Origin: Botryllus schlosseri
Taxonomy: Eukaryota
Reading direction: 5' to 3'
Length of the DNA: 64,000 nucleotides
Assembly: GCA_051294905.1 (NCBI GenBank)
Contig: CM119372.1
Coordinates: 16,556,001-16,620,000, forward strand
Shown here piece by piece: positions 3,178-32,588 of the stretch; positions within the stretch are counted from its first letter, which is position 1, and the number at the start of each line of letters is the position of its first letter. The notes beneath the pieces were generated by a model, which was not told the DNA's origin, did no database searches, and saw nothing but the letters and a program-made list of their open reading frames with translations. The translations under genes and the position numbers were made by a program.

Positions 3178-4045
3178 CAGCGGTTCTCAACCGGGGGTCC
3201 GCGGACCCCTGGGGGTCCGTGAAGCATTTTCAGGGGGTCCGCGAAGCCTCTAAATTTATGAGATAGTTGATAACCTAATTTCCATTTTTTTTAAATTAGT
3301 AAAATCAGAGTCAGTGTCGCTTCATTACTAATAGAACTGTCTTGAACAGAATGGCCGTCTGAGATGAAATAACTTGCTTTGCAGTCTCATTTTTGTTGCT
3401 AAATTGCCAATAGCCTACTGATACGAATAATTTGCTGTATCTAGATATTTTGTTGGGGATTGTGTACAAAACAGACGGATTGATTAGCAAGGTCAATTAC
3501 GGTGACTTCGAAATGTTTAAAAGAATCCATTTGCGCCTGTGATATACATAACCATTTTTCCATAACTTCAAGATGACCTGCTAGATAGAAATGGACAGAC
3601 TCGACGTTATATGTTCAATGAAAAAGAATGCTTGTCAATTTTGGTGCCATATTTGTTGCGATCATACCCAAATGCGTCGTCGGAAGCGTTACGCATTATT
3701 AATACATTCGCCACAACCTCTCTTTGTTTGAATGGATTTCGCACTCGTTCATATCAAATCGAAGGCGCCGATTTTCAAGACACGACCACGTATTTCAAGA
3801 AATGCAGTTGCAGAAGTCGCTTTGAAATAATAAAAGTCAACCCAATTTCAACAAAAATAGTATGATGTTTCACAGGAAAGGTCATTTTGTTGCTGTTTGT
3901 CACTAGCCTACAGTTATCATTTGCGCAAGACAGATGTCCATTGTACGATAATTGAGCTTAATTTGAACTAAAACTTCGGGGGGTCCGCGGGGGTCCGTGG
4001 TGGTCCAAAAGGGGTCCGCGACGACAAAAAGGTTGAGAACCACTG
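3178..4045 (+). mobile_element. Internally deleted Buster/Charlie-type hAT transposon
   Basis: TIRs cagcggttctcaacc / ggttgagaaccactg; TSD cagtaggc; degenerate hAT dimerization-domain motif ALRIINTFATTSLCLNGF in ORF 3611-3865. Confidence 0.9.
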
Positions 4046-4825
4046 CAGTAGGCAATTTAACATAAGTATATGCAGGGCCGAAACAGCACTTCGTCACCCC
4101 CCCCTAAAAAACGTTGGTCTTGGGCCCCATAGCGTCATAAACCAAACAGTAGACCCCTCATCACGGTCTACGTTTTAATCGCTACTTTGTCAGCGAAATT
4201 TGTTATACACGTTAGTGAGCTAGTTTATAGCGTAAGATCGCGCGAGGCGTGAAATTTTCTATAATTCGTGATTGATTCAATAATATCAGAAATTGCATCA
4301 TATTGTTAAACATTTTGTTATTCTCTCTCTCTGCGCACGTAATCAGATTTACTTTAAGATTTACAATCAAAATGAAATGTTTTGAAAAATGTAGGGCCCG
4401 TAAATAAAAATAATTCGGGCGGTATCCTTGGTCCCTCAGCAGTGCTGAGTCAGCACAAGGGCGGTCCTTTTTGACCAATGTTTTCTCGCTGCCGATCATT
4501 CTGGCACACTTCTAGGATCACATTTTGTTACATGACCTAAAACTTCATATGTCTTGGAGCGTCGTGGCGCGGTAATGGCCGACACCGAAATGCCCATTGT
4601 TATTGATCTTGCATATTTTTTCTTGGGGACGGCTACCCAGTACCCAATAATCAAGAAATTTGACATTAAATCGAGCGTAGGGCGAAAAAAAAATGAATGA
4701 AGTTGAACAAATTTTTAGAAATATACTCGATTAATTATGTGTATTCAAGAAATAATTTCAGGACCCCTTCGAGCTCGCCCCCCCCCCAATCGACGGGTTT
4801 GGGATGCGGCAGTTAGAGTCCTGAT

Positions 4826-26938: not shown

Positions 26939-27579
26939 TTTCCCATTATTACCTAATACAGAGTGATTGATCTGCACAATGCTGTCTTTATCTGGCACCT
27001 TTTGGCTCTGGGAGGTGACTGCTGTGTATAACTCGCTCAAATGCAATCATTCTTCGCAGCGTTACCAGCAACAATTTTGAGGCTAAAAACCGCATATTGA
27101 AGTTGATCCATAGTTTCCGGTAATCCGCAGAATATCAGTGGTATTTGACAGTAGCTAATTAAGCCTGATTATTTGCGATTACCCAGTGAATTTTATTTCC
27201 ATTTATCCATCCTGTGATCTAGGATGTTGTTGGATGCAACACTCTCCATTTCTAGGATGTTGTCGGATGCAACACTCTCCATTTCTAAAGGCACCACAGT
27301 GGTATTGAAAATGCCTCTCCACTTGTAATCACCTCATTGATTTCCCAGTTTTATAATAGGAAGTAGCTTGATTTGGAAAAATATAGTTCCAAGATGCCCG
27401 TCTCACCAAAGATGAGTTGTCCAAATGTACTACACATGACTGTGACAGACACGGAGAACAGTTCACCAGGTAATATAATTTTGAATCTCAACCACAAAAT
27501 ATAACAGTGCGGACGGAGTACTAAAATGGTGGCGTGGTTGCATGGTTGATGGTTCGGCACTTGATTCATCTGTAAAGCG

Positions 27580-30500
27580 TTACAACTCCTCTTTCTCGGA
27601 CTGCCCGTCGCTGCTGTCTTCTTCCTCTGTGCAGTATTCTGGAAACCAAAAACGGTTCGCAGATAATATAGAGTTGATTTCACACTTTTGAAAGAATTAT
27701 CGGTTCCGGCCATTGGAGGTGAAAAAATATCGGCAATTTTCGTGACGTCACAACATGGCGGTAGGAAGTCAGAAAACTAATGGCTGTAAAGCCGTTGAAA
27801 TGAGTGCTCTGTAGTTTTGCAAATGCGCCTTTTGAGTGGATTGCACCTCATTTGAATATCGGTTTAATTGGTATCGGCCTAAAAATCCAAAATAAATCAG
27901 GCTCTAGTCATAACTGACAACACCTACAGCAGTTCATGCAACAAATACCTCCTGCTTCAGTGCATATTTTGTAAGCAACGTCTTTGTCATTCCCGGAGAT
28001 ATACTTGATGAAATCGTCCTCGTGTTCCTCAATGATGCTTTCACACTAGAAAATATGCAAGATACTGCTGGTGAACGTTCAGGTACACTGGAAATAGCGT
28101 TTTAGTTCCAAAACTTGGGTTGATATCATGATGAGAAACAAAACGGCATGCATTACGTGCAGATACAGTGATCGAATGTGATTTCATGCAGTTAACGAAG
28201 TAAAAAATGGTATCCAGCAACAGTAAACTGTAACCCATGCTGTGTTTGCAAACTAATTTACAAGATCAGATTTGATGACACTGGACCATGATGACATTTC
28301 CTGACACTAAACAGGACCTCTAAGAATTTTTACAAATAAAAGAGGCATTGCAGTGGGTAATGCAGCGTCTTCGGTTTTTCCACTTACGATAAACCTGATA
28401 TCCTTGGAATCAGTGTCTGGAGGCCGGTCACCAGACGATTGCGCCCTTGCCATTAGAGCTTGGAAATCAACATCACCCGCCATTTTGCCATCGTGAGTTA
28501 CCATCCTTTTTAGACTGTACGGGAACAGACATTACAGAATGTGCCTCACACATTTTAACACCTTGGAATTCACCTGATTTTCCCAGAATCGCTTTCTACA
28601 TTTTTCACATAATCACTTGAAATGCCCCCGCAAATACTCTCCAGTAAATCCGTTATGTGACCCGCGGATCGTGCAAAAGAAACCTACTCGTCGTTACGTC
28701 GAAGGAATTATCACCGAGAAGTAGCAGACTGGGCGTGGCAGCATTGTGGTCATATGTCGTGGGGAGTAAACAGGACATGCAAGAAACGGTATTATTGTTA
28801 ATTATGTGCCATTCAAAATGCTCGTTAGGATCTGCCTGATCTCTAGTTGGAGATGATTCAATTACGAGTTAGATTAGGCTGTATCATATATATATTGAAT
28901 TCTCACAACGATTATTACTGTGAAAGTTGGCAATTATGCAACCACTCAGTGTGCAATTCATTAAAAGTTGGAACAGATCACTGGACCAGCTATGACAAAA
29001 TCAAGTTCACAATTAGCACAATTGATTTAGTTTATAGGATTTCAGGGATGGTTCAGTATTTCGAATTTGTAGATTTCAAATCCAATGTGACACGCACAGG
29101 CGCACTAAGAAGCAAGTTCTGGGCTAGAAATGAAACTTTGAACCACGTGCATTATGAAGCTCTTTAAATAGTGCATAATGAACAGAACAGCAACACAGCA
29201 TGCATTCACTACATCCAACACAATCTACGGTTTCTTACGGCAAATTTCAATTGTTTTGAAATATCCTTGCTCATTGATACATTTTCTAGAGAAATTGTCT
29301 CCCCGTCCCTGGAGCTCGTTCTAACATATTTTCGTTTTCCGTCATCCGACTTGGACTCTGCGTATGTGTTCATTTTTGAGCAGACTTCTTCTAATTGTTC
29401 GGATAGGAAAACTTCAGACCGCGAATACGCAACCTTGGATTATTACATGGGTAATGATGGGGTGGATGTCAATTGAACGACTTAATTCCATATAAATACA
29501 TATGGTATAACACATTGAAGCAAAATTTTTATCGAAGTATTAGCCTAGTCACTTTAATAGGCTATTTACGTCAAGACGGAAGCAAAAAGTTGGACACGAC
29601 TTAGCAGCAACACAGGTGCACGGTTCGAAAATAGAACATCAGTATATATCACGGACAGACAGACTGGAGGCAGATCTTGTAGTGATTTGTTTCACAGCAT
29701 AGTATGGTCTATCACAGTGGTTCCCAACCTTTTTCGACTCATCGCCCCCTTTTCAAGCTCCACAGCGATCATCGCCCCCCAAATATTGGGAACCGAAAAA
29801 TGGGCATACAAACTCTAATCACCGGTGAGTTGACTATAAAAAAGGTCAACTTTTCGGCTCAACCTCGAAATTTTCGTGAGTTGACTAAAAAATTACTCCG
29901 ACTTGACTACGGCATAGTCGTTTTAACGCGCCATCGTCTCCCTATCACCCCTTTCGTTATTTTCGCCCCCTTAAGGAATTAACGCGCCATCACTCGCCGG
30001 AGATATTTTCGCCCACCTAGACTGCCAAATCGCCCGAGGGGCGCTGTGAACTCGGCCCATGACGAATTCGGCCCATGGTGAACTCGGCCTTCGGTGAACT
30101 CGGCCCATAGTGACCTTGCTAATAATAATTAATATAAGCGTTGGGAATTGTATAAATTATTGGAGACGATAGTGAATTGGTGATGGTGGACATGTCGTAT
30201 GGATTTTATTCCCACTGGGGGTGGCATGGCATCGTATGTCAGACGTATGTAATGTTATATCAGGCATATAGAGCTGTGGTGTAATGTTGATGAAGAGTGC
30301 AGAACCTCAAGGATCAAACTCTTAACGGAAAAAGTGGTGAACATGGTGCACATGGTGAAATCGGTGTATCCCAAGATTAGGGTTGGGGATATTACCACAA
30401 CCTCAACCCTAATCCATCTCCGACCCGAATATCCCCCCCTCTCAACGCTAATATCCCCCACCTCCAACCCTAATATCCCCCTTTAATCCTAACCCTCCCC

Positions 30501-31863
30501 CAACCCGAATGTCCCACACCTCCAACCCTAATCTTTGGATACCCTAACCCCTACCCTAATATCCGCATGCCACTCCAACCCTAATACCCCTCTTCCCCAA
30601 CCCTAATATCCCGCTCGCCAACCCTAAGCCCCTCCAACCCTAATATCCCCATCCCCAACCCTTAATAGTCCCCCTCTAACCCTAACCCACTTCCAACCCT
30701 AATATCCCCAATCCCAAGCCCCTCCACCCTAATCTTGGGATACACCGAATTCACCATGTGCGAGGAGGTTTTTCCGTCTTGACCAGTGGTTCCCAACCTT
30801 TTTCGACTCATCGCTCCCTTTTCAAGCTCAACTCCGATCATCGCCCCCCAGATTTTGTGAACCGAAAAATCGGCATACAATCTGTAATCATCGGCGGGTT
30901 GACTAAAAAAAAGAAGGTCAACTTCCCGGCTCGTTGTCGAATTTTACACTAAATTTTCATGGGTTGACTAAAAAAAAGGTCATTTCTCCGACTTGACTCC
31001 AATATATCCGTTATCGCCCCCTTCGCTATTTTCACCCCCTTTGTCCATTTTCGCCCCCCTATTGCCCCCTTCGTCATTTTCGCCCCCCTAGGCCACCAAA
31101 TCGCCCCCTGGGGGGCAATATCGCCCACGTTGGGAACCACTGGTCTTCATCAACACTATATACACACTCAGTTACATAGCTCCATATGCCGAATATAACA
31201 TTTCAAACGTCCGACATTCGATACCGCCCCCCAGCGGGAATAAAATTCATATGACATGTCCACCCCTACCCATTCAACATTTATTTAAATTAAACATTCA
31301 ATAATTAATACAGTTCCCAACGTTTATAATAATTTTTATTAACAAAGTTACCATGGGCCGAATTCGCCGAATGCCGAGTTCACCATGGGCCGAGTTCACA
31401 GAAGGCCGAATTCGCCATGGGCCGAGTTCACTGATCACCGCTATCGCCCACGTTGGGAACCACTGGTCTATCAGAAGAGACCAAAGGTGCTCTCTGATAA
31501 AGTAGTTTTCATGGCTACCTTCCTACATCAACAATAGAAACCAAGGAATATATAGATAGCATCACCTTTACAGATTTTGTTTTTCCATTTGGATCGACTC
31601 GGAAACTGCCAACATCTATTTTCTTCCTTGGGTCCACTTTACTAATCTCATGCTCTACCTCATCGATGATCGCTTTACATGCTGTAAACGTAGGTAGTAG
31701 TTTACGATATGACCAGGCAATACAATGCGAGGACCACAGATCACATGAATAGATCAACTATACCTCCACAGTATAATCCAAGATCTTTTTTCCCAGCGAC
31801 GACTGACGACTTTAAAATTATGCTTGATAGAAAAAATGTCACTATTTGGAAGTTACAGAGCAT
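27580..31863 (-). CDS. CNPY2: Canopy-family (CNPY1/2-like) ER saposin-fold protein, isoform A
   Basis: Exons 31863-31764, 31681-31566, 29433-29239, 28045-27949 and 27638-27580 join in frame: signal peptide, DLGLYCGACKAIIDEVEHEISKVDPRKKIDVGSFRVDPNG, VAYSRSEVFLSEQLEEVC, LKFACESIIEEHEDD, and C-terminal KEEL ER-retention signal. Confidence 0.93.
28388..28683 (-). CDS. Alternative CNPY central exon pair (isoform B)
   Basis: Exons 28683-28574 (110 nt) and 28514-28388 (127 nt), separated by a 59-nt GT-AG intron, with phase 0 outer ends: VSFARSAGHITDLLESICGGISSDYVKNVESDSGKISLKRMVTHDGKMAGDVDFQALMARAQSSGDRPPDTDSKDIRFI; homologous to exon 29433-29239. Confidence 0.85.
29715..31465. mobile_element. Buster-type hAT MITE with two nested elements (CNPY intron)
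   Basis: cagtggttcccaac / gttgggaaccactg; TSD gtctatca. Inner element ~30043-31440 has gtgaactcggcccat inverted ends. Innermost same-family copy at 30784-31142 (TSD gtcttgac/gtcttcat). Confidence 0.9.
30395..30735 (+). repeat. Degenerate (A)ACCCTAA telomere-like minisatellite inside a MITE
   Basis: Many ccaaccctaatatcccc-type units. Confidence 0.85.
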
Positions 31864-32196
31864 GCTTCAATTTGCTCCCAGCTTTCAACTTCTCAGTACC
31901 AATATAAATTTCAAAACCTAATGTTGTAAATGAGAAAATTCACATTTATTCATGGAATGATTAGCAACCAGACGTCACAGACAACTTGGAATCGAAACAG
32001 AGTAACCGATTATCGAATCACTGTTTGGACAGAGATTCCAACAGCAATAGAACACAAGAATTTATTTGTCTTAGCAAAGAATTCAAGAAGCTGGAGAACA
32101 AATTTTTACAAGGACGCATAGTGTAGAATACAGTTCATGAAAAATTGTGCTATGAAATGAATGTTAGTACTTAGTAGGTATAGTTATAGTAATAAT

Positions 32197-32588
32197 TAGA
32201 GCAAGTTTTTGTTGCAGTTAAATCCGTGGAAAGTTGCATTTATTTTTGAAAAAAGTTGAAAAGTTGCAGAAGTTGCATTTTGCTCAGTTGACTAAAAAAA
32301 AAGGGTAAATTTTCCGGCTCAGTTCCCGAAATACCCGTAAAAGCGTTATTTCGGTGCTGATTTACAGTGTTTCAGTCGAATTTGGCCGTGTATTTCACCA
32401 AAATCGAAAATACTTTCATGAAAAATCGAGAAAGTTGCAAAAAGTTGCATGGAAGAAATGGACAAAAGTTGCAAAAAGTTGCACTTTAAGATTTCTTCAA
32501 ACAGCTTAAAACAGCATCCTACATATGTTACGAGTATATTTAGGAAGCTGCCGTAAGCTGTAAAAAAAAGTTGCAAAAACTTGCCCTA
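32197..32588. mobile_element. hAT-type MITE (AAGTTGCA repeats)
   Basis: tagagcaagttttt / aaaaacttgcccta; TSD gtaataat. Confidence 0.88.

Follow-up and report, generated by a model that had tools for sequence, protein, structure and literature searches.

One exon or an exon pair: a canopy gene of Botryllus schlosseri with two homologous middle modules that are used predominantly one at a time

When a gene holds two tandem versions of its middle third, one a single exon and the other an exon pair, does its mRNA carry one version or both? The question is raised by a canopy (CNPY) gene on the minus strand of a 64,000-nucleotide (nt) stretch of the genome of the ascidian Botryllus schlosseri (assembly GCA_051294905.1, contig CM119372.1, positions 16,556,001 to 16,620,000). 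This stretch is called the window below, and positions are counted from its first letter. A first-pass annotation of the window had delimited the two versions, module A and module B, and had proposed that they are mutually exclusive. We find that one module very probably enters each mRNA, giving a protein of 188 or 202 amino acids (aa). The switch is real and conserved, yet alternative splicing of this sort is ordinary, and the automated annotation of another ascidian, Styela clava, already contains it.

Organization of the canopy gene

The gene is compact, with six coding exon positions and GT/AG sites at every border. Its parts are listed in the order of transcription.

5' untranslated region (UTR) upstream of E1, minus strand: reaches the acceptor at 31919-31918
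31764..31863, minus strand: exon E1, 100 nt; start codon at 31863, hydrophobic N-terminus, phase 1 end (..LYCG|G)
31566..31681, minus strand: exon E2, 116 nt, shared; CxxC end of helix H1 and first beta-hairpin
29239..29433, minus strand: module A, a single exon of 195 nt (65 aa), phase 0 at both ends
28574..28683, minus strand: exon B1 of module B, 110 nt; helix H2 and third cysteine
28515..28573, minus strand: intron inside module B, 59 nt, GTGAAT...ACAG
28388..28514, minus strand: exon B2 of module B, 127 nt; second hairpin, B-specific extra helix and start of H3
27949..28045, minus strand: exon E5, 97 nt, shared; opens with the fourth cysteine (CESII..), phase 1 end
27580..27638, minus strand: exon E6, the last coding exon, 59 nt; sixth cysteine, acidic tail, KEEL and stop

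Exon E2 terminates in ..KSVK, in phase 0, at 31566. The two modules follow in tandem between E2 and E5, each in phase 0 at either end. B1 and B2 are joined through a split codon, and together they make a module of 237 nt (79 aa), 14 aa longer than A. Both E1-E2-A-E5-E6 and E1-E2-B1-B2-E5-E6 are open frames, of 188 and 202 aa, respectively. The exon borders, the lengths of 195 and 110+127 nt and the 14-aa difference given by the first-pass annotation were all correct. The 3' UTR reaches about 27457, and a contig of RNA run X13 (see below) spans 27457-27638.

Each module is joined separately to the shared exons in RNA

Four RNA runs from four studies, picked by their share of words and by species label, were mapped on positions 27300-32200, one of them (X23) as raw reads and the others (X1, X9 and X13) as contigs. 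About 6% of X23 was read; its counts sum both mate directions and come from the best 15 of 27 joints. The following joints were recovered.

E1>E2 (31764|31681): 146 reads in X23; contigs of all three other runs
E2>A (31566>29433): 23 reads in X23; also X1 contigs
E2>B1 (31566>28683): 101 reads in X23; contigs of X13, X1 and X9
B1>B2 (28574>28514): 60 reads in X23; contigs of all three other runs
A>E5 (29239>28045): 54 reads in X23; also X1 and X9 contigs
B2>E5 (28388>28045): 157 reads in X23; contigs of all three other runs
E5>E6: 142 reads in X23

All five module joints that the first-pass annotation had named are present in RNA reads. The A>B1 joint (29239>28683), which it had expected to be missing, is not among the best 15 of 27 joints in X23, and neither is E2>E5. 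The read depth in X23, taken from bins corrected for their exonic share, was about 70 on A, 161 on B and 233 on E2; A and B add up to about 231, a total that matches E2, as it should if every transcript contains a single module. The same measure gave about 176 on E1 and 310 on E5 and is therefore rough. The share of module B in this run is about 70-80%. The X1 contigs hold both A joints and all B joints, with depths of 336.7 on A and 327.3 on B; the X9 contigs hold the B joints and, of the A joints, A>E5 only; the X13 contigs hold B joints only, with zero depth on A. The B joints thus occur in four of the four runs and A joints in three, and the ratio of A to B varies between samples. The use of A and B in these RNAs is essentially exclusive, that is, predominantly one or the other, as had been supposed: each module is joined to both E2 and E5, and their summed depth matches that of E2.

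The alternative to be weighed against these counts is that A and B are independent in-frame cassettes, with mRNAs that hold both (267 aa, with H2 and its cysteine doubled) or neither (123 aa) at appreciable levels. The gene structure permits it, for both modules are in phase 0 and multiples of three in length, so that double inclusion and skipping both keep the frame; the frame does not enforce exclusivity, A>B1 included, and only A joined to B2 or B1 alone leads to a frameshift in the spliced-frame computation. At 555 nt, the A-B1 intron exceeds the length at which steric hindrance could keep the modules apart, and all borders are ordinary GT-AG, with no U12-type sites among them. The joints seen are also the best 15 of 27. 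Those 15, however, include every expected joint and neither of the two that the cassette model calls for, and E2>A and E2>B1 together reach 124 reads against 146 for E1>E2. In addition to the depth balance given above, not one of the 13 B-type proteins found in databases (see below) holds an A module as well, and the RefSeq models of S. clava are A-only and B-only. We consider independent cassettes unlikely.

Both modules are kept in Styela clava, and B in further ascidians

The closest named proteins are the S. clava 'protein canopy homolog 1-like' isoforms X2 and X1. These two (187 and 201 aa) are identical except for the module, which is a 65-aa A-type segment in X2 and a 79-aa B-type segment in X1, with the same borders as in B. 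schlosseri. Between the two species, A is identical at 47/65 positions (72%) and B at 50/79 (63%), and the shared parts at 35/48 in the mature N-terminal and 22/44 in the C-terminal portion; B2 on its own shows 66% identity to X1 by tblastn. By these comparisons, A and B are kept at least as well as the shared exons.

A profile of three B-type proteins was searched against 1.84 billion representative sequences and returned 628 matches at E <= 0.001. The best 150 of the 628, together with proteins fetched earlier, were scored with local A- and B-module profiles, and a protein was called B-type when its B score exceeded its A score by more than 10 bits. The scored set comprised 13 B-type, 127 A-type and 40 undecided proteins. 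The 13 B-type proteins are the B form of B. schlosseri, S. clava X1, A0A6F9D8Z4 of Phallusia mammillata, a partial Ciona intestinalis model and nine transcript-derived sequences. The full-length Ciona protein XP_078492282.1 is also B-type and carries no isoform label. The first-pass annotation had taken the open frame of B as a sign of selection, and the retention of B-type modules in S. clava, Ciona, Phallusia and several transcripts supports it.

Two truncated models hint that the exon borders of B are old. The partial Ciona model (103 aa) terminates at the residue that aligns with the B1|B2 split codon, and in a further protein (P0036) the stretch ..KFA continues into 'VS..', as in read-through of a GTAAGT donor.

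Two predicted versions of one canopy protein

The family assignment was made with Pfam PF11938 (DUF3456, canopy family), whose curated cut-off is 21.1 bits. Module A (40.4 bits), E2 (37.2) and E5 (23.2) all score above it; B1 alone reaches 16.4 bits, below the cut-off, and B2 alone gives no match. Full-length B-type orthologues are annotated with PF11938. The cysteines lie at 32, 35, 90, 138, 165 and 172 in the A form and at 32, 35, 90, 152, 179 and 186 in the B form, and one further cysteine sits in the N-terminal hydrophobic stretch. The six-cysteine pattern is kept in both isoforms: the third cysteine comes from the module, where A and B have it at an identical position, and E5 starts with the fourth. 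In the accessible part of the CNPY2 study, the six cysteines of that protein are described as a saposin-like pattern with disulfides C28-C171, C31-C164 and C86-C137 (PMC6566547). A hydrophobic N-terminus is visible in the E1 translation, and the C-terminus is KEEL in B. schlosseri and KDEL in S. clava, Ciona and Phallusia. KEEL would act as a retention signal of the endoplasmic reticulum (ER). On these predicted features, the gene codes for a canopy protein of the CNPY1/2 class that would have a saposin-like fold and reside in the ER lumen.

The two S. clava orthologues, as modelled by AlphaFold, have in common H1, the first hairpin, H2, the second hairpin, H3 and H4. In the A-type model (predicted local distance difference test, pLDDT, 86.3) the second hairpin at 112-116 is followed by a loop and by H3 at 134-161; in the B-type model (pLDDT 82.7) H3 lies at 149-175 and is preceded by one more helix, at 132-141. 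Foldseek places human pERp1/CNPY5 first among the matches to the B model (7aah_B; probability 0.99, E value 0.037, template modelling score 0.38/0.52). A search of the PDB by sequence returned no CNPY1-4 chain and only three weak, unrelated matches. The exchange of modules leaves H1, the first hairpin, H4 and most of H3 unchanged, together with five of the six cysteines, and alters H2, the second hairpin and the insert between H2 and H3. The two isoforms with different H2-H3 regions proposed by the first-pass annotation are supported by the S. clava models, and they would be two versions of a co-chaperone with the same core and ER retention and with different H2-H3 faces.

Module A contains an N-V-S sequon. 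It is the sole N-x-S/T sequon of the protein and lies at the same module position in both species; it is missing from the B form of B. schlosseri and from 9 of the 10 B modules examined. Glycosylation probably differs between the isoforms. By exchanging A for B the protein would gain a short helix before H3 and lose its only N-glycosylation sequon, and the swap may in this way alter the binding or the processing of the co-chaperone.

Homology and origin of the module pair

A and B are homologous beyond chance. Aligned locally, they score 57, whereas shuffles average 24.2 (z 6.9) and 0 of 1000 reach that score. The similarity lies mostly in the H2 half, the halves past the cysteine giving z 1.8; the identity is 19/65 aligned residues in B. 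schlosseri and 29/65 within S. clava. With the open frames and the shared cysteine position, these values bear out the earlier description of two homologous, open, phase-0 modules with one cysteine each.

A tree of modules was built from 45 of 146 rows (named or clearly grouped rows were kept and 101 left out) over 69 columns. The B-type rows form one group (100/99), and so do the two tunicate A rows (98/84); the latter sit, without a resolved order, among rows from cnidarians, amphioxus, molluscs, echinoderms and vertebrates. Vertebrate CNPY1 forms a group (100/98) and falls together with CNPY2 (81/76). A larger, quick tree of all 146 rows also gave one B group (100), in a different placement. 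The simplest reading, which we infer from these sequences, is a tandem exon duplication in the tunicate stem with a fast-changing B. Module A, which looks ancestral and resembles the middle part of CNPY2, would have stayed near the cnidarian and amphioxus form, and B would have evolved fast, acquiring 14 aa and an intron.

An older origin was considered, in which the pair predates tunicates: an alternative module already existed in early bilaterians, B is akin to the arthropod-type module, and only one module was retained in most lineages, whereas stolidobranch ascidians kept both. The B group does join an arthropod-like clade in the module tree (82/91), and a stretch resembling R-[ML]-x-T-x-[DE]-G-x-M, sometimes with N-P-D, occurs both in B2 and in arthropod-like rows (crab and louse among those named). 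That branch is, however, unstarred, rests on 69 columns and joins two groups with long branches; forcing tunicate A and B together costs only 3.8 log-likelihood units (approximately unbiased test, p 0.419); the spacing from the third to the fourth cysteine is 50-51 in the arthropod-like rows and 61 in B; and no organism outside the tunicates was seen with both modules. It is very unlikely, on balance, that the pair is older than tunicates. The same strong doubt attaches to the wider proposal that A and B are the last surviving ancient bilaterian pair, with B akin to the arthropod module and A to the cnidarian, lophotrochozoan and vertebrate module; if it were true, canopy differences between phyla would stem from which alternative exon each lineage kept.

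Two other identities for B were tried and rejected. The B. schlosseri genome (495.5 Mb) holds one other DUF3456 gene only, a CNPY3/4-type paralogue on contig C9; B compared with it gave z 0.5, with 297 of 1000 shuffles scoring as high, and A gave z 7.1. B was also considered as the counterpart of vertebrate CNPY1, which groups with CNPY2 in the module tree, B standing elsewhere. A parallel with vertebrate CNPY1 and CNPY2, which the first-pass annotation had cited as separate genes, did not hold, these two being nearest each other, and on this evidence the A/B pair does not appear to be an unsplit forerunner of CNPY2 and CNPY1.

How the choice may be made, and what weighs against the account

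The pyrimidine tracts are poor at the acceptor of A and especially at that of B1, which is purine-rich, and good at those of B2 and E5. Our guess at the basis of exclusivity, which is tentative and which we hold to be possible rather than probable, is that A and B1, both with weak acceptors, are rivals for the single E2 donor. B1 and B2 would act as one unit owing to the tiny 59-nt intron between them, and A>B2 and B1-only products would be frameshifted and degraded. Within 27900-29760 there are 18 inverted pairs, of which the best is a perfect one of 11 nt (28236-28246 / 29192-29202).

Besides the open frames of the double and empty forms, several points weigh against the account given here. 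Intronic pairing of the docking/selector type was not found beyond chance within 27900-29760, where a pair like the best one is expected about 0.4 times. The joints seen in X23 being the best 15 of 27, rare A>B1, A>B2 and E2>E5 forms may exist. At the borders 31564, 28045 and 27640, about 49, 49 and 55 X23 reads continue into non-reference sequence, with a consensus agreement of 0.45-0.62; the consensus on the E2 side tracks B1 for 17 letters and then diverges. These reads may come from a divergent haplotype or from a further variant, and the joint counts are accordingly lower bounds. The AlphaFold models are those of S. clava and stand in for the B. schlosseri proteins, the B-specific loop before H3 has a pLDDT of only 62-71, and any functional difference between the isoforms is purely one that we infer. 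As to origin, B adjoins the arthropod-like rows and not tunicate A in the free tree, and for the age of the pair it counts that the searches among protein sequences returned no A-type protein of Ciona or Phallusia.

The X23 reads that leave the reference at three exon borders could reflect a second, divergent haplotype in the sampled RNA, and one might suspect that A or B is an assembly artefact or a dead copy, such as a collapsed haplotype or a decaying duplicate. Against this, several independent studies show A as well as B in spliced mRNA, both are open and conserved between two species like the shared exons, the same arrangement is modelled in S. clava, and A and B, identical at only 19/65 residues, differ by far more than alleles do. 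We regard an artefact or a dead copy as next to impossible.

Relation to known systems and significance

The nearest precedent for one module per mRNA is the S. clava pair X1/X2, which shows the same exchange in the same gene, with the same borders and the same 14-aa difference; it differs in being from another species and in being known from automated RefSeq annotation alone. Full-text searches of the literature returned no paper on alternative modules in canopy genes or on the S. clava pair. Three papers on homologous exon substitution make no mention of CNPY in the accessible main text, although their supplements might list it (PMC9741552, PMC8373072, PMC4494069). The first-pass annotation's remark that it knew of no such description for CNPY stands as regards papers and falls as regards RefSeq, where isoforms X1 and X2 record the swap.

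FGFR IIIb and IIIc are mutually exclusive homologous exons. Like these, GNAO1 and tropomyosin, A and B are tandem, homologous units of the same phase that are used singly, are conserved and change one segment of the protein. In the accessible parts of the sources, GNAO1 exchanges an exon pair for an exon pair (PMC8373072), and the 5' swap of tropomyosin exchanges the first two exons for one homologous exon (PMC9741552). The B. schlosseri gene is unlike both in that an internal single exon is set against an internal pair and that the frame does not enforce the choice. The first-pass annotation had called a swap of one exon for a pair unusual; given these multi-exon precedents, the internal one-against-two layout is moderately unusual.

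Within the canopy family, vertebrate CNPY1 and CNPY2 resemble the two isoforms in that both belong to the CNPY1/2 class and differ most between H2 and H3, and in an alignment fish CNPY1 has an insertion at the place of the first insertion of B. They differ from the isoforms in being separate genes, and in the module tree they group with each other (81/76) among A-like sequences, with B apart. The CNPY3/CNPY4 (PRAT4A/B) class, represented by the paralogue in the B. schlosseri genome (G000:C9:15584823-15585807), shares with B the spacing of 61 between the third and fourth cysteines, and the paralogue has an intron about 2-3 codons from the B1|B2 position, but in a different phase and place. Arthropod canopy proteins, which we take to be Seele-type, are like B in a similar motif past the second hairpin and in a weak grouping in the module tree; they are unlike it in their shorter spacing and in showing no sign of alternative modules, and their grouping with B is not a robust one.

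Canopy proteins are regarded as ER co-chaperones that serve particular clients, FGF receptors, Toll-like receptors and GRP94 clients among them. We know of no canopy segment established as setting client specificity. In ascidians the swap replaces the H2-H3 part on a constant scaffold, and both versions appear to be under selection in at least two species; the A and B isoforms would offer a natural comparison for the role of the H2-H3 insert. Extra residues between H2 and H3 are stressed for CNPY2 in the accessible part of its study (PMC6566547). For splicing, the gene offers an RNA-supported internal swap of one exon for two homologous ones whose exclusivity is not explained by the frame.

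Further observations on the locus and its relatives

The E2-A intron (29434-31565) contains nested repeat insertions: a 130-nt direct repeat (29715-29844 / 30784-30913, 89%), inverted arms of 115 nt (30048-30162 / 31299-31413, 83%) and inverted arms of 41 nt (30348-30388 / 30721-30761, 93%) with degenerate CCAACCCTAATATCCCC-type tandem units between them. In the RNA contig sets these repeats are covered very deeply, presumably by sequence from other copies.

In the CNPY3/4-type paralogue, exons lie at about 3825-3948, 4016-4112, 4204-4326 and from 4711 onward of the segment G000:C9:15581000-15590000. The intron after the second of these has an apparent GC donor (..GCAAAG|GCAGGT), which is the sole border that keeps the frame. 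Another database protein, P0038 (370 aa), was matched in two stretches and consists of one complete canopy domain followed by a second; it is a fusion or a tandem duplication in another organism.

At the 5' end of the B. schlosseri gene, 92 RNA reads pass the minus-strand acceptor at 31917-31919 (..cattag|G) and run upstream into one sequence (agreement 0.88) that the upstream part of the window does not contain. Searched in the window, a 19-letter piece taken from this sequence matches only once, with two mismatches and on the wrong strand; in the B. schlosseri genome it has 554 dispersed copies, against 0 for a reversed control. It looks as if the canopy mRNA receives a spliced leader by trans-splicing. 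In the six loci inspected the flanks of the copies differ; AG|GT follows directly after the piece in two of them, and a CTGGACC..GGTC motif lies 55-75 nt downstream in four.

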